This document shows positions 24,950-52,200 of a DNA stretch of 64,000 nt, one piece after another. The stretch covers positions 1,612,001 to 1,676,000 of the forward strand of contig CDLV01000008.1 in NCBI GenBank assembly GCA_001244265.2, in the 5' to 3' direction. Source of the stretch: Microbotryum violaceum (lineage: Eukaryota). Both the position numbers and the translations under genes were made by a program. The notes under the pieces were generated by a model. The model searched no databases. It worked only from the letters and a program-made list of their open reading frames with translations, and had not been told where the DNA came from. Positions within the stretch are counted from its first letter, which is position 1. Each line of letters starts with the position of its first letter.

Positions 24950-25651
24950 GGTGGCGGTGCGGTGCGGTGCGGTGCGGAGAACGGCGTTCTTGTTCGAGCT
25001 TGCGCGAGGTGTGGCCGCCGGTGTGGGTGTGGGATTGACGTGTCGCCGCACGGTCGAGGCGAGTTGGGTGCCGCGGACGAGATCAGATGGGGGAGCACGA
25101 TTCCACGCCGTCCAGACCCAGAGAGTCGGGTGGGCGTTCTCCGACGATAGGAGAGGGGGGTATAGATGCGGTCGCGGAGGATGGGATATCGAATCGGCAA
25201 GAACGCAGGAAGCGTACGCGATCGAGTGCCAGCATGCGAGGATTGACCCACGCCACGACACGAGACGACAGCGAGACGACACGCGCAGGCCCGCGCCTCG
25301 TCGCCCGCCTTCCCCGCGCTTGGGCCCCTGCTTGCCCCCTGCTTGCCCCTGCTTGCCCCTGCTTGCCGCACGCCTACTCACGCTACGCCGCCCAGCTGCC
25401 GCCCAGGCCAGTTCACCGCGCCCAACGGCCCGAGCTCACTCCCACTGCTCGCTCATTGGGCATTCGGGGCTTTCGGACCGCGCCACTGCGAGCGAAGGAC
25501 CGGATGGCCTCGATACTGTCCAGACCGCACCAGCGGATGCGCACCCGGACCGTCTCCCTGCCTACACCGTGGTCGATCTCCTGCGCAGGGTGGCCGATCC
25601 ATTTCGCGACCACCCGGTCCATCTCCAGCACATCGCCGACAGCAACGCATC

Positions 25652-30375: not shown

Positions 30376-31920
30376 GGGGACAGAGGGGGGGGGGAGGTGT
30401 TCATGAATGTATTGGACCAGATTGTAGCCTCCCCGGTCAGTGCACTCTTTAGCATACGCAGCTTTTCTTGTATCAATGTTGGAGGGAGAGCAGAACAAGA
30501 TGAAGCGGCCACGAGAGATTGCTATCATGGACCCAGCCTCACGACGGCGGCGCTCCTCGACTTTCATTCGCCGCCAGCGCATTTTCTGTTCATCTTCTCA
30601 GCTTGAGCGGGAGCGGCTGGTGCAACCGCACGGGAGTGGAGAGAGGTTTTCTGCATCTTGTATGCGGATGTAGTGGTGTCCTAATGTATTGCACTCTAGT
30701 AGGCGTTCCTACCGATACAGAAGAGAGTCGCCTCACACCTGATCCCTGAAGCTCGTTTGAGCTGAAGGTTTCGTTTCGAAAAATGGGGCGGGGGGGCACG
30801 CCACCGTGGCCTGCCTGGGAAAACGACATCGATTCCAACAAATACCACATGTTCTACAACGCTCGCGAAGGAAGCTACAATGGCCGAAGAGTAGCAAAGT
30901 CTCACGCTACGCCGTAAACGTTGACGGGCATGTTAACCTGTACACGCACCGCACTCTATTTAAGGGTGGGGGACGTGTGTGACGGACTGAAATCGCGGGA
31001 CGCAGAGCTAGGGGCGCTTAGATCGCCTCGTCCGAGCCCGCCACAGCATCCTATCGCAGAAATGGTGCGAGTGCGGAAGTAAAGCCTTCCGATAGGCCGA
31101 GAAGTCAGGACCACAATCTAGAGCGAGTGACGAGAAAGCTACTAAGAAAAAACCGCCGCGCGGGAACAAAGCCCCTAGCACATCTCTCGACTCGTCCTCG
31201 TCCCTCGCCCCTCGTCTCGAGCCCCTTCGTCCGGCTCATCCCTCCCATCTTTGTCCTTTCTGGGACGCACGCGGCTCCCCTGGCCACACCTTCTTCAGGT
31301 CGAGCGCGATCCCGCGCCGCGCGAGAGCGTCGAGGATGAGCTGGAACGTCATGTTCCAGACCTGGCACAAACAAGAGAGGATCCCCATCACCACCGGCCG
31401 CGATACATGTCCGCACATATGCGGACACTTGATTATAGGTCAATACATGACGATATCGTATCCTTTCGATGTCGTAGGACAAATATATAAGTATTTCTAG
31501 GTTGAACCTGCAAGAAGAACATGATACGATATGTGTTGCAAGACTTGTGGTGATTTCAAATTATCATGTGCGGACCGCAGATTTCATGTGCGGACATGTG
31601 TCGGTCAAGTGTCCGCACATGGCGGTCTGCGGTCCGCACTTGGCTCAGCAAAGTGCGGACCCATCCGGGCGCACTCCGAGTCCGAGTCCGCCTGAGAATC
31701 TCGAGCAGTTCAAAGAAGAGACATACTTGCTACTCGGTTGACTTCATGTTGTATAGGGACTTTACTAACTAGACTTTCAGAGTTAAAGTAGATCATGAAA
31801 ATGTCTCTAAAGTTGTATCATTAGCAGGAGCGCCCATTACTACAAAGCTGGCCCAGAAAATCACAACGCTGCAAAGTTGAGACAGACCTATCACGCTTAG
31901 TGGTTTTTAGCATTGCTACA

Positions 31921-34120
31921 TCAAAGGTTCTCTAACTTAACCGATTTGAAGCCCTCGAACAAGACGGAAGCGTCTTGCATCTTCCAGACCCCTTTTCCCT
32001 CGTCAAAGGACCCGTCCAGAGTCCAGCAGCGCATTGAACGAAGGTAGCAAGTCAGCTCGTAGAACAACATAGTCACCAATCCGTTGGTGGTCCTGTTGCC
32101 GGTTGGATAAGCGAGATGACCGCGCATTGCGTCGAAGTGGTAGCGAGCCGCCTCTTCCTCGTAACCGACAATTGCATCCGTAGCGAAATGCTCACCGCTG
32201 AGAATGTAGCGCACCTCTGAACGAAGAGACCAGACGAGCTCCATTTGGCCCGAGACAGCCAAGCGAAGTTCACGCGGGGTTTGCTCGTGGCGAGGATACT
32301 GGTTTTTGATGTTGAACACAAGCACACGAGGAAGCGAGGTGATCGAACGATCTGCGGGGTGTAAGAGCGTCCGATGCAATCGCTCTTGTGATAACGACGC
32401 CCAGTATTTTGTTTCTCTAGGTCCGCCATTGCTGGTTGCCAACAAGTGAGCCGATACCTCCGACAGAGTTGGCTCGCTAAGGTTTAGACTCGATAGTAGG
32501 ACGGGCCAGTCGACGATGAAGTGTCGGCTTGGCAAGATCTCAATTTGTACGCACTGACAAGCCGAGCAATAACCAGCTCGCTGAAAGTGGGTTTCGATCT
32601 GAACTCGGGCCGTCGAGGTTGGCAAGTGATCCCGCGGTATTGGTATTGGTATGTAATCGACCGTAAAGGTGTAAAGCGACACGAGCCAGCTCTGCGGACG
32701 ACAAGAGCGATCAGCCCAATGCGGATTTATGGTAAGCTAAAGAATCTTGATCGACTGACCGATGGGTCGCTGTATGCCCCTCGCTTGAGCGGAGTTGTAT
32801 AATCACTCCTACGTTCCTTTATTAAGACGATCACCGAACTGATAATCCGCTTGCGCAGCTTGAAGTACGCTTCGGATGCATCCTTCAATACGGGTTTCGG
32901 ATCATAGTCGTAGGCTAGCTACCCGCGAATGAGGCTCCAGATCTGGAGGGCCAGTGTCTGACCTTGAAGTGCGATTGTCTCCTCCATTTCCAGCTTGGCA
33001 CACATGGAGGGGTTGGTGATAAAGAGGCAGTCCATGTGCATTAGCCACTCTTTCAGCCCGGTGGCGACCGAGAGCAATCCAAGCAAGGCTGAATCAAGCC
33101 AGCAGGAATGGTTCATAGCAAAAAACCACCCCTGAGGTGGGACGATCCCGGGATGATCCCGAGATCGAGCACCAATTTGAAATCCCGCATCGCATTTGAA
33201 ATCGGCAGAGCGATTTGAAATGCGTTTCAAATCGCTGTGGGATCGCGCCGCGATTTGAAACGCATTTGAAATCGGCGGAGCGATTTCAAATCGGGGCCCG
33301 ATCCCGGGATGATCCCGGGATCGTCCCATTTCAGGGGGGGGGGGCGGGGGTTGCTATGTTGTGCCATGGACCTTGGACAATGGCCATCCGTTTGCTGCAT
33401 TGCTGCTCGGATCGAAGCCAAAAGTCTTCGTGGAGTGTGGCAATCGTGCTGTTTTGGAGTTCGAGGGGCGTCGAACTGGACACTGCCTTCGGCGGAGATA
33501 ATCCCAAGCTTGCTTGAGATGTGGATAAGGACTTTCGTCCGAATCGTCCGGATCGTCCGAATCGGATAGCGCTTGAGAAGTCATGATAGGCCCATTTTTG
33601 AAAACCGCTTTGGCCGGCCTTGATTGCGCACCGCGCAGTTTACTTTTGCTTCTCGGATCGACGGGTTGCTGCCGTGAGCGAGCTAAAACTATCGTGATCA
33701 AATTGTCGATCTCAATCGGTGAGACTGGCATGGGCCGCGACAACGAGCTGGGCGGCGCGTTTGATGACTTGGAAACGCCTGTCCCGGGATAACGAGCAGG
33801 AGAAGCGAACGCAACTGACGCTTCTGGCATGTTGGCGTCACTGATATAAGACGAACGCACTTCTCTGCGTTCCTTGATCGCTTTCATATGAGCGCGGGTG
33901 TTGCCTCGCTCGTGATAGGTCGAGCTCTTGACGTAGCCATCTGCATGGACGGGATGAGAATAAAGTCAGACTCAATGGTGAAGAATGTTCTGATGCAGGC
34001 GCGCCGCACTGACCAGCTGCATGCATATCAATGTTGTCGGTCAGATTCGCGAAGTCAAGAAGCCGCATCACTCCTTCCACCGGGCCATATCGTTCGTTGC
34101 CGCACCGTGCCGATCGGCTA
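31921..34120 (-). pseudogene. Truncated MULE gene remnant keeping the USP-like protease region
   Basis: ERYGPVEGVMRLLDFA, SSYISDANMPE, QGPW..SCWLDSALLGLL, HFQRAGYCSAC, SITSLPRV, GEHFATD..YHFDAM all align with element B. It is interrupted by a MITE and stops. Confidence 0.8.
33114..33358. mobile_element. 245-bp MITE with CATAGCAA..TTGCTATG ends and 2-bp TT TSD (CMC/EnSpm-like)
   Basis: Terminal 8-bp inverted repeat, internal about 45-bp inverted repeat (33129.. versus ..33337), and ATTTGAAA/TTTCAAAT repeats. Removing the element plus one TT restores the frame P-W-H-N-H-S-C-W. Confidence 0.85.
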
Positions 34121-34641
34121 CCGGCGCCCCGGCGCCTGCCTATCTTGAGCATATAGCCCAAGAGAAGAGTGATGTGCTGTGTCGTGTTTTATAGCACGTG
34201 ACTTTCTAACCGCAGGAGCTTCCACAATCCTCCATATTATACCATCTTCAGGGGAGTAGAAGGCTAATCATTCAAAACCTGCATAAGTGCGACTCGGCTG
34301 AGTGTGGCGGGATGGGTCCGCACTTGGCCGGATGGGTCCGCACTTCGCTAAGCCAAGTGCGGACCGCAGACCGCCATGTGCGGACACTTGACCGACACAT
34401 GTCCGCACAAGAGGCTGCGGTCCGCACATGAAATCTGCGGTCCGCACATGATAATTTGAAATCACCACAAGTCTTGCAACACATATCGTATCATGTTCTT
34501 CTTGCAGGTTCAACCTAGAAATACTTATATATTTGTCCTACGACATCGAAAGGATACGATATCGTCATGTATTGACCTATAATCAAGTGTCCGCACATGT
34601 GCGGACATTACCCTAACTAGTTACCCTATTACCCTAACTAG

Positions 34642-37219
34642 CTACTACCTCTATATATATATAAAAAGGTGAGTTAAGGAATGTACCTAAAATCGCTGTT
34701 TTTAACTAGGTTGCGGCCTGGAGGGCCGCCTGTGGTGGATGTACCAGCATACTGTTGTGTCTGCCGCACCTGCCTGTGGTGTCTGGGTTCCGATCAAAAG
34801 TCATGTACAAGCCCTGTGGTGACTTTTGTATTTTCCGCGCCGTTCCAACGAAGCTACAGCGCTCCCAGTATTTTCCTTCTTTTTTTCGCTGACATAAAAC
34901 AAGGCTTCGACTCATATGGTATTTAATGAACCGCAAGCGCGTGGCTTTGCATGATATCGCTTCTACAGCAGAGCTCTGCCTGACGCGCGAGGCGAGGGCT
35001 GGCGTTTGTCACGTGATGCGGTGCGTCGGCGGTGTCAGTGTCATTCCGGCAGTCGACCAGCGGCATTAGGGGCTGAACAACGAATCAAACCACGTAAATA
35101 ATCCTGCGCCACTCCCTCGAACCTTTTCTTTCTCCCTCTCACTCTCATCCAATTTTAGTGACACTCATTCAAGAACAAACCTTCGCTACTGTGTAATGCC
35201 CCGGTCCCAAGGTCGCCAGGGAGGGCCATCGCAACCTCGCCAAGTCTTGGGCACGAGGGTAGCGCCGTACCATGGGCTGCCATGGGCCTGCTCGAGCGCC
35301 CGCTGCGGGGCGCCCCGCGGCTCGACCCTCCTCTTCGTCCCGCTCCGATCAACAGAATCAGCCCCCCGGCGCGTCATGACAACAATGCAACCGATCTTGG
35401 CATTGCGACACGTATACGAGCCCGCCATGCAGCTGTGCAGAACGGACAGCGTGGTCAGCGCGATGGCCAACTCGACGCTGGGCTCGCCCCACCACCACCT
35501 CCTCCGCAAAGGCGAGTGCGCCGGGCTCGAATCGCGCTCAAACCCCTCAAGCCCCACGTTTTCGCAGGGCAAGGTGCGGCTACCTCCCCCTCCCCAGCCC
35601 AATCTCGAGTATCGGCAGCTTCTTCAAGGCTCAGATAGCGGTCAGTTGCTCCGTCCAACAACATCTCTCTGCAGTATGGCCCACATGCTGAACTGTTCTA
35701 CCCACCCACACAGAAGCTAAAGCATTCCGCGAGAATGCCCGGTCGTACAACAACGCGTTGTCGTTCACTTCGCTCGCTGCCCTCTGGGACCAAACTCAAG
35801 TGGGCACGCTAGGACCCACCGTGTTTCGCGTGTTTGGTCGCCTCTACCATCGACTCGGCGCCCTGATCCCTGCCGTGAATCAATGCCCAGCCTTTGCCCA
35901 GACATGGCTGATCGACCCGGCCGAGGCCACCAACACCCGACTTCAAGGACCCGACAGCGCAGAGACTCGCATACAAAGATCAACGCTGACCAAGCTCGAG
36001 TCCATGTTGCGCACCGGCAATTGCTTTGTGAGGGAGTTCGCATCGGCCAAAGGCCGCGCGGGTTGGGATACAGCCAAAGAGTGGGTCCTGCGCCTCTGTC
36101 TGCCACCAGGCCGAGACCGACGCACCCACAACCTTCCTACGTCAAGCTCGGAAACGGCGATGCTTATCTGCGATTCCGACACCAACACGGGAGATCGTGG
36201 ACCGCAAGACCTTATTCTCCAGGTGCACGGTGATCGATGTCCCGATGGTCGGCCCAAGTACCAAATCGTTAGCTCGCTCCATCCGTCCGCGATGCCTCTC
36301 CGTTACCCACTACTTTTTCCTGCAGGGGAAGATGGCTTCCACCCCAACATTCCTCTTTGCGGGGTTCCACCAAGCCAGGCCTCCAATCGCCAGAAACTGA
36401 GAGCAGATCGACAATGGTTTTCCAATTGCGCGAGGTACTTGCCGGTCTCGGTCTGGATGACGAAGACGAACAGGAGGACGTAGACCGCGACAATGAGGAT
36501 GAAGATGGCGAGGAAGAGGACGAAGAGGATGGTGATGGCGAACGTACGCGTCTTCGGCTCTCTCTCTGATGTTCCATTCTACCGAAGGCGCAAGCACAGA
36601 CTGACATTGAACTTTTGAACACCTAGGACGAAGGTCAAGTAAAGGGGTCGAGGTGGCGAGTCTCGCGTTCACAATTCTTTGCGCACTACTTGCCAAACGC
36701 GACGAGCACTTCTCAATCCCGCATTGCACCCAACGTCCCTTCCTGGAGTTCGTGAATTACGGATGTACTCCCAAGTCAAGACCGATTGACTCAACACATC
36801 CGGTTACATCAAGAGAACCTACGCCTCACCACGACCCAAGGCATCAACGGCTTGACCCCGAACCAAATCGCAACATCACGCAGCGATACCAGGATGCGAT
36901 GGCGTGCGTTGTCAAAATGGAAAGCCTCCGCTGCTCATCACGATGACGTACGACCCCGACTCACCGTAAATCAAGGCTGCACTGGGGCCGATAAAGCATG
37001 CAACCGTCCGGATCTCATTGCACGAGTGTTTGAAGCCAAGTCCGGCAACAAGCGACATGCAGGCTGTTTTGGCAATGAATGTAAGATGAATGGATTTTGT
37101 TTCTTTGCTGTATTTCGTATTGTGGTTTCCTAACCTCTGCGCTGATATCATGTAGACTGTTTGATTATCCTGCTATTTTTTGAATTTCATCCTCCCATAA
37201 TTTAACGGGTTCCCACTGG
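34642..37219 (+). mobile_element. Non-autonomous Helitron copy 1 with degenerate Rep N-terminal region
   Basis: 5' CTACTACCTCTATATATA; fragments QGKVRLP, NNALSFTSL, FRVFGRLYHRLG, LHPSAMPLRYPLLFPAGEDGFH, QRYQDAMA, RPDLIARVF; 3' imperfect hairpin followed by CTGG. Confidence 0.85.
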
Positions 37220-37227
37220 TGCACTGG

Positions 37228-37752
37228 TTACTACCTCTATATATATAAAAAGTGTGAGTTAAGGAATGTACCTAAAATCGCTGTTTTTAACTAGGTGGCT
37301 GCCCGGAGGGCCGCCTGTGGTGGATGTACTATCACACTGTTGTGTCCGCCGTACCTGCCTGTGGTGTTTATGTTCCGATCAGAAGTCATCTACAAGCTCT
37401 GTGGCAAGTTTTGTTTCTTTCGCGCCAGTCGAACGAAGCTACAGCGTTCCCAGTATTTTATGTCACTTTTTAATTGACGTAGAACTGTGCGGACACTTAT
37501 ATTGTATTTAATGGACGGCAAGCGCGTGGCTTTGTATGACATTGCTTTTACAGCAGAGCTCCGCCTGGCGCCTGACGCAGGGCGAGGCTGGCGTATGTCA
37601 CGTGATGCGGCGCGCCAACCGTGTCAGGCTCACAATTCTTTGCGTACTACTTGCACGGAAGCTACGATGGCGTGCATTGTCAAACATGGAAAGCCTCCGG
37701 GCTGTTCATCACGGTGACGCGCGACTCCATTCGCGAATGGCCGGAAATCAAA
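37228..37752 (+). mobile_element. Helitron copy 2, head-to-tail with copy 1, internally deleted and 3' truncated
   Basis: About 390 bp homologous to the copy 1 5' end, then jumps to short pieces matching 36669.., 36897.. and 48931... Confidence 0.8.
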
Positions 37753-37843
37753 ATCAGGGGCGGTACCGGTGCTGGGGGGTGCGCTTGCGCTATCAAATAA
37801 ATAAATAAGAAACTCAATTGCGCCAGCTCAGTTTGGCGCGCGC

Positions 37844-37905
37844 GAGTTAGCGCACTTGTGTTGGCGCAGTCGAGCGCCCGAGTTAGCGCACTTGAGTTAG
37901 CGCAC
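37844..37905 (+). repeat. Three copies of GAGTTAGCGCAC
   Basis: Exact copies at 37844, 37880 and 37894, just upstream of the GCM-MULE coding region. Confidence 0.7.
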
Positions 37906-37939
37906 CGGCGACGTCCTCATTGTTCGTATGGATCCAGGC

Positions 37940-40900
37940 TCGAGCGGTGGCTTGTCACACATGTGGGCTTTCTCGGCGTCATCATCTCGAACCGATTCAA
38001 AAGGGCGATGGAAAGGCCCGCGTTTGGATGCAAACGTCGAGTACAGCAAGTACAGCAAAAGACGTTGCATGGGCGTGTTCGTCTGTTGTGATCAATGATG
38101 CCCTGGCAAGCGTCGACCTCACACATCGCTGTCGACAGCGAGTAGGTCGAAGTTGTTTCAGGAGGAGACTCCACAGCTCGTCACAGGACGCCCCAAGAAG
38201 GCTGCAACCCGCAAGCACCTCGCTCCAAACGTTGAGAGGCCTTCAGACGAGTTACCGCCGTGTCCAATCACAAGCTGTAACGGACCGATGAGGCACATCC
38301 TGTGCTCCGCTACGATTGCCCGAGGGCAGCGTGAGGAATGCCCGGGGGAAATATATATCTGGCATTCAGGGTACCATTTACATCCTCCGCCTCTGGTGTC
38401 GCGTCCGTCCCGGCAACATCTGGAAGAGCTGCAACAATTGCGTAAAGCCGCTCCACAAGCATCGGCCGCCGAGCTGCGCATGGGACAAATGACCGCATTT
38501 CCGCAGGACCCTCGTCATCGGCCATCCGCCTCTGAGATTTGCCCTGTATTCGACAGCACTCGATCAATCTCGAGATACGCACCAAGAGTGGGCCACAGTA
38601 AGCGTAATGGAGCCCTTCCCGACACGTTGAGGTCAGCTATTGAAGCTGTTGCCAATGCCGGTTGCCTCGCGTACATTGAAATACCGGGGCAGCGCCAAGG
38701 GCAGCCACTTGCCGAGCAAATACACGATCCTGACCCTCGGAAGCAACCCAGGAACGATGGGTCGCGGTCGAAGTCGAAGATCACCTCCAATTCGCTAACC
38801 GACTCTGAGACGTCATTTGGCATCCAGACTCCTCAGATGAAAGCGAGGCTCTCGGAAACGATTGACGACCGGCTAGTCGAAGGCAATTTAGGATGGCCTA
38901 CCGACGCTCACAACACCTACTTTCGCGACAATTGGGTGTTGCTCGCCGCGGTCTGCTATTCGCCAAGCGCTCGTCGCTGGTTTCCGATCTTGTACTCCGT
39001 CTGCAACCACGAGCGATCGGGCTTCTACCGCCGACATTTTGCGCACCTATTCCAGATTCTTGACGATGCCAATTATAGCGTGGAGGGCATCGTCAACGGA
39101 GTCACATTTGTTGTCGATTATTCAAGCGCGCAGATTTCGGGTCTTCGCCAAGCCATTTCGGATTGGTATGTGGCACGCAAGACCGCAGATGTGGGACGCT
39201 TGAACGTCACACCCAATCAGGTGTCACAGTGGACTGCAGAGGCTATTCAGATTGGCGAGAAGGCGGCAAGCGGGTGCGCCTTTCACTTCATTGAGCAGGT
39301 CAGGAGGTTCGGGGTCCAACATCTCAGTACGCAAACGGAGCGCGAACGATTTGCAATGCTGGTCAACACCATGCGCAACGCGAAGTCCCATGCATCGATT
39401 GAGTCCATGGCAAAGCGCACAATCGATGAGTTTCCTGTGTCAGAGAATTGGATCAAATAGTGGACACGACCGGCGATTCAAAATGTGGTATTCAAGGAAC
39501 TCAATGGATCCGCAGAAAGATGTGTGGCTACCACAACAAATGCGGTGGAATCTTCCCACTGGCTCCTAATCCATTCATGTGGTGGCGAACGCTTTGGACC
39601 GGTGGAAGGGGTGATGCGACTTATTGACTTTGCGAGAATGACAGACCGAATTGAAAGTCATGCGACCGGTAAGGGCCTGGCATAGCGTTACCACCAACCC
39701 ATTATCCTCATCTAAAACTATTCTCGCCTTTGCTTTGAAAACAGACGGCTATGTCAGGAGTTCCACTTATCACGAGCAAGGCAACGTCCGCGCTCATATC
39801 AAAGAGATCAAGTCACGCAATCGGGTACCTTCATCCTACGTCAGTGACGCCAACATGCCTGAGCCTTCGATCTCGTTCGCTGCACCTGCTCGTCTAGCTG
39901 GCATCGGGTTTTCTGAGTCACCACAAGGACCTTCAGACCTGTCAAAGGGTCCTGCAACACCACCACTGAGCGAATCAACCAAATTACCTCCTTCCACGTC
40001 AAATCGTTCCCGGCAGCAACCAAAGAACCGGTCAAGGCAGGGCAATGGGCCCACTGCGCAGTCGATAGCCTCCAAAAAGGGCTCAACACGTGTTGATTAC
40101 CCCCAAGCGCAAGATTCCTGACCCGCCGTCTGACGAGCATAGTTCGAGCGAATCATCAGACGACGTTGGATTGACCCCCTCAATTCATTTCAATTCATCC
40201 GAGGCCATTCTCCCGACGGATCGCTCCATCAAGCTCCATCAAACGTCCAATTCCAAATCGAAAGGTAGTCCTCCCCGCTCAGCTTTCAGCGGCCAATCGC
40301 GACGAGTCCCCGTTGTCCCTATGGCTGTGAGGGCGCTCAATGAAGAAACGGAGTTGTCCCAAATACGTACGCCTCCGCCCCAGACTGTTGACTGAGTGCA
40401 GAGGCGCTGAGGCCTGGCTGACGGAATCCCTGCTCTGATTTATCCACCGTCTCACAGGCCTTGCGCAGCACAATGCACGAAATTTGGAAGCCCCCAGTGG
40501 TCGAAAATACCGGATACCTCGAAAACGATTGGCCTTCCTCTTGTCGGAACCTGAATCACAATCGGAGGCAAAGAGGGCATGTACGTCCGTATTCGACATT
40601 CCCCTGTCCATGGTTGCATCCAAGTCGGAGTTGGCGCCATCGAAAACTGCAAGAAAGGTAGAAATCGCCACGCCAAAACCTGCTTCGACGTCGACGTCAC
40701 TCGAGCGCACCAGTGACAAGCTCCCAGAGGACTCTAGATCTGCACCAAGGGTAAAATTCGCTCCGCCCAAGACATCGACGTCGACATCGCTCGGTAGCAC
40801 GATTGTGCAGCTCCACGCAGACTTCTGGCTTCGATCAGGTGAAGACGGGCCAGTCGTCATTATCCAAGGCCCGTGGAGCGATAATTCTTGCTGGATTGAC

Positions 40901-42767
40901 TCAACGCTTATCGCATTGCTCTCGGTCGCCAACGGATTGGAACCATGGCTGCAGTGTCTGGATATCCTTAACACCCATACGGCCTACGTGATTCCTCCAC
41001 TTGGCGATGAGATGGTGTTGAGGCTCCGCCCTCGATATTTGGCACTCGAGCTATGGGATGCGATTCGCGAATACACAGCATTGGCTCGAAAGTTTGATAT
41101 GAAACCGGCAGCGAACGCAATTGAAGCATACACACAATTACGAGAACGGATGATTTCCACTGTGGTTGGGATGTCGAAAGAGCGCGGAAGCCATTTTACA
41201 ACTCCATTTGGGCGAGGGAGTTATAGTAGCCCAGTAGTCAGTCAATCACTTAGCGAACCCCGCCCTCCCAAGACGATTGAAACTGGACGCTAATCATCAC
41301 TTTTTTCGGCAGACCTGGCTCGAGACACTTCACTCGTTCACCGTCGATCATCCGGTTCTGCCAAGCGCTGTCACGTTGAATGATCCCGACCGAACTCTCG
41401 TCGAATTACATCTCCAACGAGCCGGGTATTGCACTGCCTGCAACTGCATTCAGATTGAGGTGTCCCCAAGACGACAGTTTGTGGTTGACTGGCCCCTTCT
41501 CATCTCAAGTCTTTACCTGCCTTCGCATTCGCTGGAAACGTTGTCGGACGTCCTCGCCTCAATCGTTGGGCAACCGTTGAAATTGTACAGAGGCAAAGAA
41601 CTCAGGCCGTCGGCATCACAAGCGCAATTGCCCCGGAGGCTCTTACGTGCAATTCGTTTCAATCACCTCGCTCCCCCGTGTGATTGTGATCAACATCAAC
41701 AATATTTACCCGGAACATTCACTGGCCCCAGCTGAGCTACGCTTCGGTGTTTCGGACCAAATGCCAGAGATGGTCTGGCGCCTTCGGTCAGGAGTGTACA
41801 ACATCAACAATTCACATTTCGTTACGAACGCGACGGTTGGATACGGGCAAGAGGCCGCATGCTATCATTTCGACGCAATCAAAGGCTCTCTCGCTAGGCC
41901 GACAGGGGACAGGAACGCTGGCGGATTAGTTTCCGTTCTTTTCTACGAGCTAGAAGAGGAGTCATTGAACTTCTTGCAAGCCTTCGACCTAATGCTAACG
42001 CGGCAGTGGCACGAAATGTGGAGTCTATACCATGAGCCCTCTGATCCTACCGATATCGGCATTAAAGTGTCAAGTCTACCACCCAAAGGGACTCTTGAAG
42101 AAGGACAAGGTGTCTGGAAGATGGAAGATGCGTCGGCTTTTATTCATGAATGCGAGATAGTGAGTGTCGGGAACGCCAAAAAAGCAGATCAATAGAGCTG
42201 ACGATGCTCTCCTCTTACAATGTTTTCCAGCGGTGCAGTGCTCCTGGAGGAAATGACAGTGGGGAACATTCATGTTGATGGCAAGTTTGACTCACAAAGT
42301 TGTGCCCCAGTGGTCCAGTGAAGTTTTGGCCTTGTCAATCACTAATGTAGTGTACAGTAGGGGCTATGATAGCGGTCAGCAATAGTATGTATAACTAAAA
42401 TTAGTGCAAAAATGGGCATGGCGATACTTTGACAACCACTGGTGTGCGGAAAGAGTCAATTATTCACCAGCAGCAGCCAGTGCTCTTTGCGCGCGAGCGT
42501 ATCCTTACGCATGTCACGTGCGCGCGCGGGCGTATCCTTACACATGTCGACACATGTAAGGATACGAGGGTGCGGTAAGGATACGGGAGGTGCGGTAAGG
42601 ACACAGAAGTTTTGAATCACTACAAGTCTTGCAATACACATGCTATCATGTAGTCCTTGCAGACACCATTCAGAAATAGTTATATGTTGATGTTACAATA
42701 TCAAGATGAACAGATTTGGTTGTGTATTGACCTTAACTCATGTGTAAGGATATATCCTTACATGTAT
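37940..42767 (+). mobile_element. Mutator-like element B (GCM-MULE-USP); right TIR about 42490-42767, left TIR not found
   Basis: Transposase pseudogene, plus a right end whose backbone (cacaagtcttgcaa-like segment, gtattgacct, terminal acatgtat) is homologous to the TIR of element A. Confidence 0.8.
37961..42195 (+). pseudogene. GCM-domain + MULE DDE transposase + USP-like cysteine protease, inactivated
   Basis: GCM-like WAFS..KRRCMGVFVC..C..RP..CPITSCNG..C..WHSGYHLHPPP. MULE D (WPTDAH), D (VVDYSSAQ), CxxH (GCAFH), E (TTNAVESSH). Cys box WSDNSCWIDS and His box SHFV..YHFD. In-frame stops at 38096 and 39458, frameshift near 41.6 kb. Confidence 0.8.
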
Positions 42768-43469
42768 ACAAGCCGCCGCGAGCTCGGCCCACTTCATGCG
42801 AAAACCTTTATCTTCGAGACCTTGAATGCCGACCATTACACACCGTAAGTGGTACACGCCGTCGTGTCTACTAGTGGGCCGGAAAGTTGCATCAGGGGCA
42901 ATTGCGGGGCCACGCCCGCGGCGCCACCGATCGTTGCCACCGGCGACTCTGCAGAGGAGGGCGCGGCGTGGTCGTTGGTTGAGGTCGAAGCAGTCGTCAT
43001 TACCGGTACCAATAGGGTCGAAAAGTTTCGCGAGTGTAGAGGCAATGAGCACTGCCGTTCGAGCGAAACGAATAAGGTGCAGGGGCGAACAGGCATTTCT
43101 CTCGCCTACTCCACTCTAAGCGCATGCGCGCCACCCCCAGCAGGACCCCCGAAAGCCCAGCCAGAGGCGGCCCGCAAATTTGGACATTTTGGGAACCCGA
43201 AAATCGGCTAGGCAGCCCGCAAATTTGGACATCTTTGGCTCAAAATGGGTCGAGCCTCACCTCATTTTTGGACATTTTCGTCCCTCCGGTCGAACTTTGA
43301 AGCGCAGACCAGGGTAGCGGAGGCTGGAGGCGCAGGCTGCGCGCGCGTAACAGTCGCGCTGTTTGCGATTTGAGCGCGTTGGTAAGTGCTGCATTTGCGA
43401 TCAATCATGAAATCCTATTCGAGTCCATTTCAGTTTGACGCCCGACACGCCAACGACCGCGGTCGTGGC

Positions 43470-46423
43470 ACCCAATCACTGGCACTCTATACTCTACACA
43501 CGTGTCTACAAAGGTGTTGAAAATACCTGTGATCATTAATATCGAACCGAGCTTTGCTCTCACCTCCGAGGAATTTGCAATCTTGAGCCCTGTTGCCGAC
43601 CTACGCCTCGTTGACCTACTCGCGTACGACTGACTACCTGCGCCCGACGCTTCTCTCCGACTTGCTCTATCGAAAGATGACCCTCGACATTTTGACGAGC
43701 TGCCACGCCCCTTGAAGCAAGCTATCGGAAAGTTTTCCAATCAAAGCTTTCTATCCTTGGCTTATCTCGATGGCAATCGATCTGTCGCCGTATCGGGGTC
43801 GTCAATGCGCCTTCCTCTCGATGCCTCGGCGTTATGGGCCCATCTCGACAAGGCAGAAAAAATTCGATATATCATCCACAACATTTAAGAATGGATTCCT
43901 CGATTAGCTAACGCCGACACGATTCGGGAGCGTGAGCTTGCCAGTGCTCGTCATCACCTCACTCGCATACGTTGGACAGCTGTCGACCGCGTCTATCTCC
44001 GAGGTCGATCTACACGCCTCCAAGACTTTCTACAGATCCTCAGTGAGTTTGCATCCTCTTCATTCATGAGTCGATCCTGGATACTGATGTGGGTAGAATC
44101 TTGCGTGTGTCTGCAGGCTCCGCCTGGTACTCCGAAACACACATGGATTGGATGCTCGAGAGCGTCCTAGCAGCACCATCGTCTCTTCGATTCGTTGCCT
44201 TGCCCGCCTGGTTCTTATCCGATGCCATCAGGTTGAACCGACGAGGAGCGCGGATCGACCATTTTGGCAATGTCAAATTTGACGAACTGCATCATTTGGG
44301 GCTTGCCTCGCTGTCGGATCTGCGCCGACTCATTGAAAGGGACAACGATATCATCTGCTTCGTTCCCATTTGCCAAAAGGAGCGTTGGTATCTCTTCCGC
44401 ATCAACGCAAAACAGCAAGCCTGGAGTCTGGCCAACTCGATGCCCAGCCTGCCGCCAGCTTCAGATCTCGTTACTGGAGTACTCGATCTCATCGCCTACC
44501 TCGGGATCGCACTCAAACACAAAGGCTTTCAAGTCCTACCGATCGCCGTCCAAGGCGATTCTCACTCGTGCGGTCCTGCATGCATCAGTGTGGTCAAGGA
44601 AGAACTGCTCCGACTTGAGCCCTTTGACCCTCGGCACTCAAAGATGCTGCGTCTTCGCCAATTCAATCGGATTGCTCAGCAAATACTCCAAGAAGCGGAC
44701 GAGGATGATGACGGTGATATTGAAATGTACTCCCTGGACGTCTTGGAGAGTTATCAAGACAACACCTCGGAACTTGATGACAAAGACGTGATTATGTCGC
44801 ATTTCCATTGACTCGACAGCCGTTCAGTTCCCCCCTCTGCCTTCGTTGCGAGCTTCAACTTCGTCGTCTCCGTCACCTCCTACATCGCCATCAGCGTCAC
44901 CGTCAACGCCACCGTCGAATGCGGCAGCTGTAGTTACAGCGCGGAACCTTTGCGCGGACTGGTCAAGTGTTTTTGGTAACACGGCAAATACTGCATTTGA
45001 TGTTGCACTTCCGGGTCGTCCTTTACGAGCACAGCCATCAATCCCACTACCGCCGACTGTAGCTTCTGCACCTGTGGCAAAACTTCGTGGAGATTGGTCA
45101 AGGCTGTTTGAAACACCAACAATGCCGGTTGTAGTCAGGCCTCCCATGTAAGGATCTGAACACCTCCGACTCCTGACATGAGCAACTGCAGGCGCACTTC
45201 TTTCAGAGGTTCAACATCTCTCACTTTTGGTCTGGATCAGCACTGTCAGGTATCAAGTCCGTGCCTTGGGTTTGGGATTCATTGGGATCAGAGACTGGGA
45301 GAGGAGAGGGGGTTGGGTTGGAGGAATTGGTTGCCAAGTGGAGTTTATTGAGCTTGGACCCATGCTTAGTTTGACTGGCTCTCTTGTGCTCGCTTGCCCC
45401 TCTGGTGAGAATCACCTCTCATCACCGCCTAGTTTCTTTCGTATCTCGTCATCGACCCCAGCTTCATTGCTGCTCTTCTCTTGATTGCAAGGTAGTCCTG
45501 ATACAGCGTATACGTTTGGGTCTTCGTTGGGAGCAGCGCCTCGTGCTTTCACCTTCGCGTTCGAGTCACATATTTGACTCCGCATCCTCACCTCGTATCG
45601 AGCTCTTGTGTGCTCTCCTGGGTGTTGTCCTTTGGTCATCGACTTGCTTTACGGCTCAAGTCGATCGTCCTCCCTGCTTGCTGTTGAGTCTTCCCAGCCA
45701 GCTCTGTATCCCGTTTCGTGCGGTCCGTCTCACCCCGTGCAGGTTGCCCTGCCTCGATCTCGACTACAACACTCGACCTCGAGGGAGTGGTCCTGTCATC
45801 CCAAGTATCCCGTCGATGAATCCGAGATGCGAAAAAAAAGAGGTTTGCGAGCCGAAGCCCGCACGCAAAGCGCAATGGACGATGCGGCAAAGGCGCTGGA
45901 GCTTCAAGAGAAGTTGACTCGGTATACCCGCGAGATCGAAGAGGCATGTCCGGGCTCAAAAGTCTCCAGTACCAACCTGCGCGTCGTAATCTGTGGTGCT
46001 TGCCGCAAGCACATCAGGGTCAAAGGGAGTTTCCAACCATCTCGATTCAGGGACCACCTCAAAGGAGCCAGCTGCCGCACCAACCGTTTGAATCCCCGCA
46101 TCACTGGGTTACTACCCAAGGTTTCCGATTTCTCGACACGGCGAAGACTCGTGACGCCATCACGCCTTGCCCAGGTCTTACAACTCCCACTGGTCTGGAT
46201 TACCTAACGCGCACATCCGCTCCAGGAGGTGGTGCCTCAAGACGAAGGGATCTCATCATACAGGTGTATCCAGCCAAAAAAGTCGAGAAAAATATCCTAC
46301 TTGACAAGGACGAGGGGACACAGGTGAATCTTCACGAGAGGGACGTTCTAGAATGGCGTAACGACCATGTCTTGCAATGCGTCAAGAGCAGGACATGTCT
46401 GGGAGCAGCAGGATACAGCCCAA
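43470..46423 (+). pseudogene. N-terminal part of the P-like gene: Ulp1/C48-like domain, S/P-rich linker, Cys/His zinc-binding region
   Basis: ICFVPICQKERWYLFRINAKQQAWSLANSM..QGDSHSCG; ICGACRKH..FRDHLKGASC; PCPGL..YLTRTSAPGGG..WRNDH..C. Several stops and frameshifts. Confidence 0.6.
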
Positions 46424-46647: not shown

Positions 46648-49209
46648 TTTACTACCTCTATATATAAAAAAAGGTCGATCCGCGACCATGTACCTAAAAT
46701 CGCTATTTTCGAGGGTGTTGCGGCCCTCTGGGCCGCCTATAGTGAATGTACCAGTACAGTATTGGGTCTGCCTCACCTGCCTGTGCTATTGGCGTCGCGA
46801 CCAGAAGTCATGTACGACCCTTTTCGCATTTTCTGCACCATAAAAGTCGAGCTACAGCCCGAGGAAAATTTTTGTTGATTTTTGGCGGGGTGCCCAACTA
46901 TTGAGCAGTTTGTGTGAGATTTAATGTATAGCAAGCGCGTGGGTTTGCGTGACACTTCTTCTACAGAGCTCAGAGGTTGTCCCGCTGTCTTTGCGGGCGC
47001 GGCTTACGGATGCGCCGTCAATCACGTGATGTGTATTGTTTACAACGCGACACCGGTTTTAGGGGCTGAACAACAACATGATCTTCCAGGGGCTGTAAAT
47101 AGTCCCGCGATACTCTCTCTAATTCTTTCCTTTCCCTCCCACTCACCGAATTTTTGTGACAACCGCGCCGAGTCTGGCGCGAGGATAGCGTACCGCCGTG
47201 CCATGGGAGACCATGGGCCTGCTCGAGCTTACTCGAGCGCCTGCTGCTGGGCCCGCTGCTCGACTCTCCTCTTTGTCCCGCTCCGATCAACAGAATCAGC
47301 TCCCCGCGCACAATGACAACAACTCAACCGATCTTGGTATTGCGACCCGTATAAGCGCCGCCGTACAGCTTTGTAGAACGGACAGCGTGGTCAGCGCGAT
47401 GGCCCGATGGCCGAACCGACACTGAGCTCGCCCCACCACCACCTCTTCCTGCGCAGAGCAAGTGCACAGGCCTCGAACCCCGCTCAAACCACTCAAGCCC
47501 CACGTTCCCATCCGCGACTACCTCGGCCCCAGATGGCCGTGTGTGCCCACTGCAAGGCTTGATACTGGGAGTGCAAAGGACGAACCGGACACTTGAGCAC
47601 GTGCTGCTCGCAGGGTAAGGTGCAGCTACCTCCTCTCCGGCCCAATCCCGAGTATCGACAGCTACTTGAAGGGTCGGATACCGGTCAGTCTCTCCAGTCC
47701 GTCGTAGGCCCACATGCTGAACAGCTCGACCTACACAGAAGCGGTTGCATTCCGCGAGAATGCCCGGTCGTACAACAAGTTGAACGCGCTGTCTTCACTT
47801 CGCTCGCTGCCCACTTTGACCAGACTCGACTAGGCACTCAAGGACCCCCCAGGTTTCGGATTTTTTGACGCCTTTACCATCAACTGGGCCCACTCTCGGC
47901 GCCCTAGTTCCTGCCATCAATCAGCGCCCAACCTTTGCCAAAACATGGCTCATCTGCCCGGCCGAGGCCACCGACACTCAACTTGGACCCGACGGCGCAG
48001 ACAGTCGCATACAAAGATCTACTTTGACCAAGCTCAATTCTACGTTGCGTACCGGCAATCGCTTGGTGAGGGAACTTGCATCGGCCAAAGCTCGCGCAGG
48101 TTAGGCCAAAGAGTGGGTCCCGTGCCTCTGCCTACCAGCTGGCCGAGACCGACGCACCCACAACCTTCCTACGTCGAGCACGGAAATGGCGATGCTCATA
48201 TGCGATTCCGACACCAACACGGGAGATCGTGGACGTCAAGACCTTATTCTCCAGGTGCACGATGATCGATGTCCCAATGGTCGGCCCAAGTACCAAATCG
48301 TTAGCTCGCTCCATCCGTCTGCGATGCCTCTCCGTTACCCACTACTCTTCCCCGCAGAGGAAGATAGCTTCCACCTCAACATTCCTCTTTGCGCGTTCAA
48401 CCAAATTGGGCCACTCTTTGCCAAAAGACCGCGACGAGGAGGAAGGGGACGCAGAGAATGGTGATGGTGAACGTAAGCCCTTTCGGCTCTTTCTCGGATG
48501 TTCCATTCTGTTAAGGCGCACGCACAGACTGACATTGAACGTTTAAACGCCTAGGACGAAGCTCAAATAAAGGGGATCGAGGTGACGAGTCTCGCGTTCA
48601 CAATTATTTGCGTACTACTTGCACAAACGCGACGAGTACTTCTCAATCCCGCATTGCACCCAACGTGCCTTCCTGGCGTTCGTGATGACGGATACTCCCA
48701 GGTCGAGACCGATCGACTCAACTTACCTCCAGTTGGATCAAGAAAACCTCCGCCTCACCACGGGCCAAGGCATCATCAGCTTGACCCCTGATCAAGCTGG
48801 ATGTTCGGTGATTTTGGGCTCAACGTTCAAGAATAGACCGCGCGAGAACACACAGCGTTACCAAGATGCGATGCCGTGCGTCGTAAAACATGGAAAGCCT
48901 TCGCTGTTCATCACGGTGACGTGCAACCCCGAATGGCCTGAAATCAAGGCTGCACTGGGACCGAACGACCAAGCATGCAACCGACCGGAACTCATTGCAC
49001 GAGCGTTCGAAGCCAAGTTGAACCGACTCTGCGACAACGACGTTTTTGGCAACAAGCAACGGGCAGGCTGTTTGGCCGATGAATGGAGAACTGTTTATTT
49101 GCTGTACTTCGTAGTGTGCTTATTTAACCTCTGTTGAAATCATGTAGACTGTTCAATTGCGCTGCTATTTAAATTTCACCCTCCCGTTAATTTAACGGGT
49201 TCCCACTGG
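46648..49209 (+). mobile_element. Non-autonomous Helitron copy 3, nested in the P-like element
   Basis: 5' TTTACTACCTCTATATA after an A; CCSQGKVQLP, SVILGSTF, QRYQDAM, HGKPSLFITVTCNPEWPEI, RPELIARAF; perfect hairpin CCCGTTAA-T-TTAACGGG at 49183-49199, then CTGG followed by T. Confidence 0.9.
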
Positions 49210-49210
49210 T

Positions 49211-52200
49211 GTCTCTTTACAGCGGTTCTTCGTCATAAAGCGGTGCCCACGGAGACGCAGAGGTTCACCAACAAGTGGTTCTGCGCTGGGGACACGCTCA
49301 TCACGTCGATATATCGACGGTGCAATGGTCTGGAGGAACTCTTTAACTCGCACGACAAGCCAAACCTGTTCCTCCGATTTGCGCAGAAGATGGCGTCCGG
49401 TCAATTGCAAGGCCACGCCATTATAGATGGCATGATCCGTGCTGCGGTTACCAAGAGCGAACGAACAGATGCCGGCAAGACGATGCGTGGATTTGTGCGA
49501 ACCCAAGCTTTGGTCAACTTTGAGCAAGCCATTGCAATGGCATCGCCTGCCGCCCTGCGAGTCCTGCAAATGTCTATCGGCGCGTCATCAAATCGGAAGC
49601 TTCAGTGAGTTGTACAATGAGCTGATGTTGTTGTCTGCTGTGAGCCAGGTTATTGAATTCGTACATCGCCTGCCTCAATTGCTCGTATCACAGACACGTT
49701 CGGAACACGGTACACAAACTACGATTTGGACAGGACCTTGAACACATTGCTGCTGTTGCCAGTGAAATCTCGGCCGGCGCTGCAACATTCAACCTCCATG
49801 TGGACGATACTTGTTTGAGACCCCGGATTCGGACCATCCCAATCTATGACAACTTCACGTCCGAAGAACGGCACACTGTGATTGGGGTCGAAGGAGGTTC
49901 AATCACCTATTCAACTCAAGAAGAGCTACAGGCGATCTTCAACTCCGATGATCTGTAATACCCCAGGCCCTTCACGACTAGGTTACACAGTCCAAAAGAC
50001 TGACAATTTCAATAGATGCATATTGAAACCAGAAGGGTAGTTAAATAGCGTAAGGCAACCGAGCCTTACATGATCCCCCAATTGCGGGCACCAAGGTAAG
50101 TTCTGCGTGATTTAACTGTGCGTCGTGAACTGAAGGCCGACTAATTTCTTCGGCACGTCTTCTAGGTTCGCACGTACATGATAGCTTCAAACGCGGTCGG
50201 CTCGACAGCAAAACCCCTTGCGGCTTTTGTGATCGGCGAGAAGACTGGCACCACTGCCGCCGCGGTGGAGCTCGGTGGCTTGCTTGAGCTCCTCGTGAAT
50301 TTCGGAGTGGCACACTTGCTGGTATCAATTTCCGCCGATGGGGCCGCAACAGAAGGCGTTATTCAACGCAAGACAATGGAGCGCTTGAACGAGATTGAAC
50401 CATTACCGGTATCGTGCACATACATTCTACCTCGTCCACAGAGCAACGACATCTTCTCCGCAATCGTCATCAGATCGGCGCTAATGGGGGGCACACTCGT
50501 CGTCTTCTGCCGCGATGAGAAACACGTCGCCAAGAATTGTGCAAACGCCCTCGACACAGGTGCACGTTGCATCATTGGCGGCATGGGATGCTTCACTTTT
50601 CGGGATCTCCTGAAGTTAGTTGATACGACACTGCCTACGGAACTTCGTACTTTGTATCGACGAGATGTGCTTCGCCGCGATCGACAAGACGACAATGCGA
50701 CACGTCGAGCCTTTGGTTTTGAGACACTTGACACTGTCATACGGCTCGCGCGTGGTGGCAAGATAGATTAAGAAGGGGTCATCATACTCTTCCTTTTTGG
50801 CGAGATGCACGACGCAATTCATAATCGCGATCTACCACATGCTGAACGGGTTCTTATGCTCTTGACCGTTCGTTATGCCCTGGAGGGATGGACGAAATTC
50901 GCGGAGTCCCAACCGCGCAGTTCTCCCAACAACTTCCTCAGTCCTCAGACACTGGATGGCATCTATCGAGTGGTCGAGGGCTACATAGCACTTGTTCGGA
51001 ATTATCGGAACTATTGGCCGCAGGAGGCGTTTATTCCCTGGAGACACGGGACCGAGATGGTCGAACACTTCTTTGGAACATTGCGCAAGATTGTGAAGGA
51101 GTTTGATGCTCTGGACTTCCTCCAAGTACGTCTTCCTCCTTGACAAATCACTTGCAAGACTAAACCTATCTATGGCTTTCCTTTCCTCAGTCATATGCCA
51201 AAGTCGAGGTACTACAGCGTGCGATGCATCAACTTGGCACAGATGCGGCTGGCTCCGCGCAAGGTTATCATCACACCTACCAAAACCTGCACAATCTCAA
51301 TTTGACTGCGCTCGGTACCTATCCGGGCGATGGCGACATCGAGGCCATCGCTGTTAAAGCTGCGCTTGCGGCAAACGACATTCTCAAAGGACTTCGCATA
51401 TGGGACATTATCGAGGAACGGAACATCGAGAAACGCAAGCAAGCTCCTCTCCCTGACATCCTGGTCGATGGTTAAGTCTCAGTCATTTTCATTTATCTCA
51501 TCTTGTGCGAGTGACATGACACTTACAGGTCGTTTAACTTGCTCTCGATAGATGAGGCAACATCGACCGTTCGCCAAGGTGTCCCTCCGAACGTGGACGA
51601 GACTGGTCTGAACCAAGTCCTCGTTCATCTCCGTCTTGTCGGATCGGAGCCATTACCGTGTATTCTGCGACGCGAGGAACGCGACGCGATTTTGAGCGCG
51701 CTTCTTTCGGTGACTGCGCTTGACATTGACCAGGAAGGTCTCATGTACGTAGCTTGGTGTTTGAGAGCAAAAACCGATCACAAACAACCGTATATTGAAC
51801 CCTCAGCGATGCTGTTGATGCTGGCTTCGATCAAGCCGATGCAGAAGAAGAAGATCGACAGCTTCAAACGATCCTGGCCGAAGCATGCCATGAGCATGAG
51901 CAATCCGTGAGTGAACAAAATTTTCGGTTGATCGATGCATTTACTGATACAGACCCATGTTCCCAACCAGTGGGAAGCGCCCCCGTACCCGCGTCATCTT
52001 GGGGGCCCCTCTACTCTGTCCCCACACTCGACTTGGACAGCTTGCTCGCTCGACGACGTGCACACCAATGCCGACACCTCGAGAAGATCAAGTTTAAAGG
52101 TGGCGCGCAGAACGTAGCGTCAGATCAACCCTTTGCCCAAGACCGAACCGAGCACCGCGGCAACGTGCATTCTGCCGCACTTCGACGGATAGTCGAGACG

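Follow-up and report, generated by a model that had tools for sequence, protein, structure and literature searches.

What kind of gene occupies positions 37907 to 42767 of a 64,000-nucleotide stretch of the Microbotryum violaceum genome (GenBank assembly GCA_001244265.2, contig CDLV01000008.1, positions 1,612,001 to 1,676,000 of the forward strand; "the window" below means this whole stretch), and does it join a transposase to a protease of the deubiquitinase type? A sequence-only reading of the locus had proposed a Mutator-like transposable element (MULE) in which one spliced gene combines a GCM DNA-binding domain, a transposase and a C-terminal domain resembling ubiquitin-specific proteases (USPs). 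We find that the gene belongs to an element present in two diverged copies in the window, that the C-terminal domain lies inside the inverted repeats of the element and in a single open reading frame (ORF) with the transposase, and that purifying selection kept this domain as two lineages of the element diverged. Our preferred explanation, held with moderate confidence, is that the element is of MULE type and carries a divergent USP-type peptidase that serves the element itself.

A protein search with a 453-amino-acid piece of the gene returned eight matches, all from Microbotryum silenes-dioicae, including the long gene models P0009 (1,561 amino acids) and P0011 (1,513 amino acids). These ORFs and that of P0014 (1,002 amino acids) have no stop from the core through the C-terminal domain. 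The order in P0009 and P0011 is an N-terminal region (absent from the window), a Cys/His zinc finger, a D-D-CxxH-E core, a linker of about 330 amino acids and a Cys...His...Asp domain of 340 to 420 amino acids. Six exon pieces of the window are colinear with P0009 residues 233 to 1550 at 93 to 98% identity. Because the exons align only from residue 233, the window copy (copy 1 hereafter) is without the first ∼232 codons, and upstream of exactly 37907 the contigs of other copies part from the window sequence. Those contigs came from four public runs (X1, X2, X7 and X8) and were compared with window positions 37200 to 43000. The span first proposed for the gene, 37961 to 42767, was right at its end, which is the end of the right inverted repeat, and began too late, since similarity begins at about 37907. 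All of the motif strings named at that stage are present on the plus strand in the order given. The main features of copy 1 are as follows.

37907..42767, plus strand: copy 1, a 5'-truncated and degenerate family-1 element, equivalent to residues 233-1550 of intact P0009
38057..38392, plus strand: Cys/His zinc-finger region, WRKY-GCM1-like by pattern only
38096-38098, plus strand: in-frame stop TGA (TCA, Ser, in other copies; 38097 G>C in X1)
38891..39559, plus strand: transposase core, D-D-CxxH-E by pattern
39458-39460, plus strand: in-frame stop TAG (TGG, Trp, in other copies; 39459 A>G in X1 and X2)
39744..40873, plus strand: Ser/Pro/Lys-rich linker (P0009 residues ∼800-1130), including intron 2 and the first two-base deletion
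after 40103, plus strand: two-base deletion in the linker (CA extra in X1 and X8 contigs)
40874..41952, plus strand: C-terminal Cys...His...Asp domain, USP-like by motif, including intron 3 and the second two-base deletion
after 41586, plus strand: two-base deletion in the C-terminal domain (AC extra in X1 and X2 contigs)
42500..42767, plus strand: right terminal inverted repeat, with seven GTAAGGATA subterminal repeats including the terminal palindrome

Both stops had been noted previously and are indeed in frame; the single frameshift reported with them gave way to two, each a loss of two bases relative to other copies. Copy 1 is also without a left inverted repeat, because the right-end word GTAAGGATA is absent anywhere upstream. 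Comparison of copy 1 with X1 gave 12 synonymous and 18 non-synonymous changes among the at least 30 coding differences listed, at least one of which falls in the C-terminal domain; we draw no inference from these counts. Residues 1 to ∼135 of P0009, which have no counterpart in the window, are a conserved start of the full-length copies and are also retained in deletion derivatives. A low-confidence model (mean predicted local distance difference test [pLDDT] score of 31.3) hints at a strand-helix-strand arrangement in this N-terminal part.

The coding sequence is interrupted by four GT..AG intervals.

39668..39743, plus strand: intron 1, 76 nt, GT..AG (X8 contig; same junction in P0009)
40367..40457, plus strand: intron 2, GT..AG (X8 contig)
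41237..41312, plus strand: intron 3, GT..AG (X8, X2 and X7 contigs)
42160..42230, plus strand: intron 4, 71 nt, GT..AG, close to the end of the ORF (X8, X2 and X7 contigs)

Contigs from X8 are letter-identical to the window yet skip all four intervals, those from X2 and X7 show the last two joints only, and X1 contigs read straight through the introns in the manner of DNA. Thus, each interval is skipped in contigs of one to three runs, in agreement with the proposal of one spliced gene, and once the introns are taken out the reading frames connect as they do in the database models, save at the two 2-base lesions. The joints are most simply explained as spliced transcripts; intron-less DNA copies are possible in principle, the kind of X2, X7 and X8 being guessed or not recorded.

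Mapping the gene pieces back onto the window with tblastn located another copy, diverged in sequence, on the minus strand (34104-31927; protein identity 38 to 69%). Of the coding region it retains the entire C-terminal domain, the linker and only the end of the transposase core. Its features are listed below.

31407..34608, minus strand: copy 2, an internally deleted family-2 element of 3.2 kb (self-comparison and tblastn)
31407..31668, unstranded: inverted repeat on the 3' side of the gene, with GTCCGCAC subterminal repeats (92.2% identical to 34608-34328 over 281 bp)
31927..32736, minus strand: uninterrupted 270-codon ORF, covering the half from the CxxC to the His/Asp boxes
32922..33353, minus strand: exon piece with Cys box NHSCWLDS and a short internal duplication before it
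34328..34608, unstranded: inverted repeat on the 5' side of the gene, partner of 31407..31668

Since copy 2 has the C-terminal domain between its inverted repeats, the domain is inside the element. This position, together with the in-frame fusion to the transposase in the intact copies, shows that the domain is not a separate host gene outside the terminal repeats, the outcome that would have overturned the sequence-only reading. The duplication within copy 2 (33100-33353, minus strand) repeats ...SRDHPGI... and ...FQI.ARS... just upstream of the Cys box and stands in place of a QGPW lead-in that is conserved elsewhere. Further derivatives occur among the protein models: P0015, P0001 and P0016 (M. 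saponariae) and P0004 are without zinc finger and core, so that the N-terminal region is joined directly to the linker and C-terminal domain, or to the second half of that domain. No full-length lineage-2 transposase was found in any search made. Two M. silenes-dioicae models, P0008 and P0013, are element copies split by a Copia-type retrotransposon (precomputed Pfam lists: P0008 includes PF07727 and PF00665; P0013 holds only PF14223).

Relatives of the element were found only in the anther-smut genus Microbotryum, across the proteins and metagenomes searched. A phmmer search with the 270-amino-acid ORF against 1.84 billion representative proteins gave six matches, five from Microbotryum and one to a weak, unrelated repeat protein. 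Three word-indexed protein searches returned M. silenes-dioicae and M. saponariae and no relative outside the genus, and two metagenome scans gave 71 and 212 pattern matches, none of which was confirmed. Intact copies, whose existence had been put forward as a check, are at hand in the full-length P0009 and P0011, both in frame through the C-terminal domain, with relatives seen in this one genus.

The C-terminal domain is the part of the protein that was proposed to be a protease, and the boxes on which that proposal was built are the following.

40874-40903, plus strand: Cys box WSDNSCWIDS, Cys at 40889-40891
41427-41441, plus strand: YCTAC, CxxC at 41430-41441
41809-41826, plus strand: NSHFVT, His at 41815-41817
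41863-41877, plus strand: YHFDA, Asp at 41872-41874
41935-41952, plus strand: VLFYEL

Copy 2 has NHSCWLDS, YCSAC, GEHFAT and YHFDA in the corresponding places, so the putative Cys-His-Asp triad is present in both diverged window copies, as first described, and none of its three residues varies among the six full-length domains that were aligned. Identity of the domain between P0009 (lineage 1) and P0015 (lineage 2) is 55% (183 of 335 aligned positions), compared to 29% for the linker (73 of 251 aligned positions, with 69 of 320 positions unalignable). The ratio of nonsynonymous to synonymous divergence (dN/dS), which had been suggested as a check on the protease domain, was 0.28 between the two lineages for the half running from the CxxC to the end (copy 1 versus copy 2, NG86, 208 codons: dN = 0.36, dS = 1.26); the exon with the Cys box gave dN = 0.70 and dS = 2.97 over 115 codons. 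As dS is near saturation, dN/dS is if anything overestimated. The conservation across two lineages (55% versus 29% identity, low dN/dS, invariant triad) therefore shows that the domain was kept by purifying selection while the lineages diverged.

Whether the domain is a USP is a separate question, on which motif order and statistics part company. The Cys, CxxC and His/Asp boxes do stand in the order claimed for a USP-like protease; the statistical likeness to USPs is at chance level. Relative to USP/C19 (PF00443), the domain is alike in the order and rough spacing of the Cys box, acidic helix box, CxxC knuckle, P-x-V-L strand, His, Asp and LFY strand, and it differs in giving no significant profile match, in having Trp for Asn and in a second CxxC that is down to one Cys. 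The Cys and His are ∼285 amino acids apart with the CxxC between them, a distance and layout that fits USPs and not OTU, UCH or Ulp1. When hhalign was run against 41 USP domains, its maximum-accuracy path was colinear over the whole domain, without statistical support, and paired SCW with TCY, NAIEAY with DAxEFL, YCTAC with CxxC, LPRVIVINI with PxvLIIxLK, NSHF with GGHY, HFD with the (N/D)D box and VLFY with yLFY. In a protein-language-model Atlas, 17 of the 30 nearest neighbors of the domain (P0017) were PF00443 UCH clusters, the best scoring 0.94 at rank 6; the other 13 were unnamed, the top ones being basidiomycete clusters. A low-confidence AlphaFold2 model of P0017 (from a 15-row alignment, A1; mean pLDDT 30.7) would have the Cys opening a helix and the His opening a strand.

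Several results weigh against a USP assignment. Pfam searches of eight window pieces (E ≤ 1) and seven intact proteins (E ≤ 10) gave no match to UCH (PF00443), and a profile of the domain had no match among Protein Data Bank (PDB) chains at E ≤ 10. The pLDDT of the model just described is itself a point against the assignment, as is the count of at most 164 of 256 features in the UCH matches of the Atlas, where fewer than 170 is typical of chance matches or distant relatives. USPs usually have Asn five residues before the catalytic Cys; the Microbotryum domain has Trp there. For direct comparison, a USP set was assembled from 120 giant-virus loci retrieved by a Cys-box DNA pattern, which yielded 94 ORFs of 280 to 700 amino acids and 43 sequences at 55% identity; all 43 were PF00443, and 41 were aligned after L102 (a partial match) and L056 (truncated) were dropped. 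A hidden Markov model of these 41 verified domains gave negative bits for the Microbotryum domains. The hhalign probability was 0.24% with a fragment-rich alignment and 0.3% with a clean six-sequence alignment (P = 0.19, score 17.3), and 8 of 36 column-shuffled controls equaled or exceeded the real score. Seven 12-column blocks, picked blind to the query from only the USP alignment, had best matches that were not colinear in the query: the longest increasing run was four of seven in all four sequences, within the two commonest classes (3 and 4) of 500 shuffles. The block PxxLIIxLKRF fell at its expected place in all four sequences and was the only one to do so. It is worth noting that the USP set is narrow, because all of its members have the exact Cys-box word, and that the query profile has an effective depth of ∼1.2 sequences; these statistical tests are therefore of low power. 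Likewise, the two AlphaFold2 models, of this domain and of the N-terminal part, have pLDDT scores near 31, too low for the models to be usable, because the alignments are so shallow. Because the Atlas returns the family predicted from the motifs, and likewise returns MULE for the core (see below), we regard a USP fold as moderately probable; our estimate rests on those neighbors and on the colinear motif pattern as read by eye. That the domain is a thiol peptidase also seems moderately probable.

How else might the domain be explained? The idea that it is a host fragment captured passively in the manner of Pack-MULEs, with no role for the element, has a precedent in that MULEs often take up host fragments, and the Ulp1 domains of plant MULEs are discussed as transduplications in the available text of PMC2528002. 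In intact copies the Microbotryum domain nevertheless shares a reading frame with the transposase. It has been conserved in both lineages, at near-saturated synonymous sites and with a dN/dS well below one, and shows no detectable similarity to any cellular family in the 1.84 billion representative proteins or in Pfam, and we consider passive capture very improbable. The domain could instead be no peptidase and serve as a lineage-specific accessory of the transposase, acting in multimerization, in chromatin or DNA binding, or in zinc binding through the CxxC and His, with the likeness to USPs being coincidental. Such a reading would account for every statistical USP comparison being at chance level, for Atlas feature counts in the range of chance matches or distant relatives, and for the lack of relatives outside Microbotryum in the protein searches and metagenome scans. 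It leaves to coincidence the return by the language-model search of the very family predicted from the motifs (17 of 30 neighbors), the three residues invariant in six of six domains, and the agreement of the Cys-His-Asp order, the ∼285-residue Cys-His distance with its CxxC knuckle and the LFY strand after the Asp with what we take to be the USP layout. We therefore judge a non-peptidase domain unlikely, though by no means negligible.

If the domain is a papain-like peptidase, its substrate might be the element's own polyprotein, from which it would free the transposase by cutting away linker and tail, without deubiquitinating other proteins. Coronavirus papain-like peptidase, which does both jobs (polyprotein cutting and deubiquitination), gave the one weak Pfam match at the Cys box (E = 0.39), and the 330-residue linker between core and domain is poorly conserved. 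Babu et al. 2006 (PMC1702500) proposed such self-processing for MULEs of Medicago whose C terminus is an OTU domain. However, no conserved cleavage-site motif was identified in the linker, which was not searched systematically, and the only transposon peptidases of this kind to have been assayed, the VTDs of Helitrons, are deubiquitinases in the portion of PMC9741609 available to us. Self-cutting alone is in our estimation rather improbable, and if the domain is a peptidase, removal of a ubiquitin-type tag ranks somewhat above polyprotein self-processing. The most specific form of the preferred explanation, in which a DDE transposase has as its C-terminal domain a working but highly diverged enzyme of USP fold, either a deubiquitinase or a protease for ubiquitin-like proteins, remains tentative, and we would put it at somewhat less than an even chance.

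The assignment of the element to the Mutator superfamily draws on the core, the termini and the finger. The core motifs are as follows.

38891-38914, plus strand: GWPTDAHN, putative D at 38903-38905
39107-39127, plus strand: FVVDYSS, putative D at 39116-39118
39272-39289, plus strand: GCAFHF, CxxH at 39275-39286
39539-39559, plus strand: NAVESSH, putative E at 39548-39550

By inspection, the core of P0009 has D562, D636, C689/H692 and E at ∼760, i.e., a spacing of D-74 aa-D-52 aa-CxxH-∼68 aa-E, and these residues are presumably the catalytic ones. The Atlas places 22 of the 30 nearest neighbors of P0009 residues 560 to 900 in a single PF10551 MULE set (top score 0.91, 141 of 256 features), which we treat as a lead only. 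Long inverted repeats (at least about 100 bp) are a MULE trait, and those of copy 2 extend over 281 bp at 92.2% identity. The Pfam searches described above gave no match to the MULE/Mutator transposase profiles PF10551 and PF00872, which counts against the assignment. A target-site duplication, about 9 to 11 bp long in MULEs, could not be read, as the flanks of copy 2 share only "TAC", with a Helitron-like repeat abutting, and copy 1 is one-ended. The earlier identification of a Mutator-like transposon is consequently upheld for the long inverted repeats and the DDE/CxxH core and lacks its Pfam counterpart. The CxxH motif is common to several transposase superfamilies, and the absence of a Pfam MULE match together with the unreadable duplication would be compatible with membership of another C/DxxH superfamily (hAT, P or Kolobok). 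Inverted repeats of 260 to 280 bp with subterminal repeats, an N-terminal WRKY-GCM1-like finger and Atlas neighbors of the core that are MULE and not hAT all speak against such a placement, which we regard as most improbable. Because the Atlas neighbors, the long inverted repeats, the D-D-CxxH-E spacing and the finger agree, we are confident, short of certainty, in the MULE label.

The finger region upstream of the core contains three motif stretches.

38057-38089, plus strand: Cys cluster KRRCMGVFVCC
38255-38305, plus strand: finger motif PPCPITSCNGPMRHILC
38372-38392, plus strand: YHLHPPP

The layout, by inspection, is a Cys cluster, a basic insert of ∼60 amino acids, CPITSC...C (C-x4-C), a Trp in IYIWH and HLH, and we take the spacing of the cysteines to resemble the GCM pattern. 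The Cys/His motifs that had been read as a GCM domain are thus present; the identification as GCM itself was too specific and finds no Pfam or PDB match. The GCM profile (PF03615) gave no match in the same Pfam searches, and when the finger region was compared by phmmer with every PDB chain (E ≤ 10), the single match, 1wvk_A (E = 0.68), was no GCM chain; neither search supports a GCM domain. AlphaFold2 on P0012, covering N-terminus, finger and core (alignment A6), yielded the model with mean pLDDT 31.3 mentioned above. In the available text of Babu et al. 2006 (PMC1702500), insert-containing WRKY-GCM1 fingers are described as usual for MULEs and are characterized by a basic insert of 20 to 70 amino acids between cysteines, a strand-4 Trp, a terminal His pair and a position N-terminal to the core; GCM proper is given there as known only from animals and as derived from the insert-containing family by insertion of a zinc ribbon. 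The Microbotryum region is like these insert-containing fingers in its Cys cluster, basic insert, C-x4-C, Trp and H-x-H before the core and unlike a GCM domain in matching neither the Pfam profile nor a solved GCM chain. The label "WRKY-GCM1-type finger" for 38057-38392 is defensible from this pattern. With its extra cysteines the region may hold another zinc site of the kind found in GCM. If it does, a GCM-like finger with a second zinc site would exist outside animals, which would fit an origin of animal GCM from a transposon finger.

A target for the finger is suggested by the termini of the two copies. Against the repeats of copy 2, the right end of copy 1 (42548-42767) shows 71.5% identity across 158 bp and 68.7% across 198 bp, and both lineages have 9-mer subterminal repeats with a terminal palindrome, copy 1 using the word GTAAGGATA and copy 2 the word GTCCGCAC(A). 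The layouts (window 42500-42761 versus 34356-34606 and 31409-31660) are nearly superimposable, with spacings of 33/23/19/20/149/9 in copy 1 and 21/24/19/20/149/9 in copy 2. That the layout was kept but the word changed suggests that the finger and its presumed binding sites changed together, and the two lineages offer a natural pair in which such co-change can be followed.

A USP-like cargo had been called less familiar for a MULE; as a view of protease cargo in general this would be only half right, since OTU and Ulp1 domains are documented, and a domain of the USP class was not found described for any Mutator element or other DNA transposon in the literature searched (supplements, subscription journals and Repbase lay outside its scope). 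A close parallel is in Medicago truncatula, where the accessible part of Babu et al. 2006 (PMC1702500) describes MULEs with a C-terminal OTU protease and suggests polyprotein processing. Those elements and ours are alike in having a WRKY-GCM1-type finger, a MULE core and a C-terminal domain of thiol-protease type in one protein, and they differ in that the Microbotryum domain has no OTU match, a USP-like order, a ∼285-residue Cys-His distance, a 330-residue linker and a fungal host. Ulp1 (C48) domains are borne by plant MULEs (KI-MULE and others) and by CACTA elements, as set out in the available text of PMC2528002. Here the likeness is a ubiquitin-like-protein protease domain downstream of a Mutator-like transposase. 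The Ulp1 domains described there are of clan CE with a His-Asp-Cys order, often in a separate ORF in either orientation, and are related to host ULP genes, whereas the Microbotryum domain has the order Cys-His-Asp, is fused in frame and has no host relative that we could detect. Helitrons and Helentrons carry VTD and OTU domains, and Erven et al. 2022 (PMC9741609) showed that the zebrafish Helitron VTDs cleave ubiquitin chains and proposed that transposition proteins are shielded from the proteasome in this way. These VTDs resemble the Microbotryum domain as transposon-encoded papain-like domains with conserved catalytic residues (fold and activity in Microbotryum being putative); unlike it, they belong to rolling-circle and not DDE elements, and their Asp-x-His differs from the Microbotryum Asp, which lies 17 residues after the His, as is typical of deubiquitinases.

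Taken together, these observations would be explained if copy 1 were the inactive, 5'-truncated remains of a Mutator-like element that once moved autonomously by cut and paste, and copy 2 a short deletion derivative of a sister lineage. The WRKY-GCM1-type finger would then probably bind the 9-mer repeats in the long inverted repeats, and the RNase-H-like DDE/CxxH core would probably cut and paste the DNA. Beyond a long flexible linker, the C-terminal domain would most likely be a very divergent USP-type (clan CA) thiol peptidase working for the element, either by freeing the transposase or nearby chromatin proteins of ubiquitin or a ubiquitin-like tag or by cutting the polyprotein. A role for the domain against degradation or against silencing is speculation by analogy with the precedents in other transposons.

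Thiol-protease cargo in transposons is already known, and what is new here, if confirmed, is a further protease class in a fungal MULE lineage. An enzyme of this kind would be the first of the USP class in a cut-and-paste transposon in the literature searched and would found a subfamily beyond the reach of current profiles. Thiol proteases that belong to the ubiquitin system have been gained independently by several transposon classes, MULEs having OTU and Ulp1 and Helitrons VTD and OTU; a third, USP-type class in a MULE, if real, would strengthen the case for ubiquitin-tag removal as a general transposon strategy, and Microbotryum would provide a compact fungal system in which to test it. Should the domain prove not to be a protease, it would still be a selected accessory domain of a transposase.

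The surroundings of the element are divided between ordinary genes, which occupy positions 1 to 30400 of the window, and nested transposon remains from 31 kb to ∼50 kb, including Helitron-like repeats. Among the ordinary genes are the following.

3-1284: XPG_N/XPG_I nuclease gene
22448-23707: Neugrin/MRP-L20-like ORF
24377-25435, minus strand: p24/GOLD protein
26012-29761: mitochondrial DNA polymerase gamma

Another repeat is present as three copies or fragments (34637-37221, 37223-∼37906 and 46650-49211) that are 74 to 83% alike across aligned segments, the third of which runs on into an ORF (48586-49134) with Helitron_like_N (PF14214, E = 8.8e-23). Copy 2 is adjoined at its right end by the first of these Helitron-like repeats; the second stops at the truncation point of copy 1. 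Downstream of copy 1, a 254-amino-acid open frame (44047-44811, plus strand) reads ...RWYLFRI... and then ...QGDSHSCGPAC... and has no Pfam match; these strings are reminiscent of the Ulp1 (C48) Gln/Cys and His boxes, with different residues at the His and Asp positions, and the frame may be what is left of a further element with a protease. Finally, an open frame 11 kb away from the element (53983-54837, plus strand) includes a domain of the ubiquitin family (PF00240, E = 9.1e-11, residues 39-111) and probably encodes a host protein with a ubiquitin-like domain.

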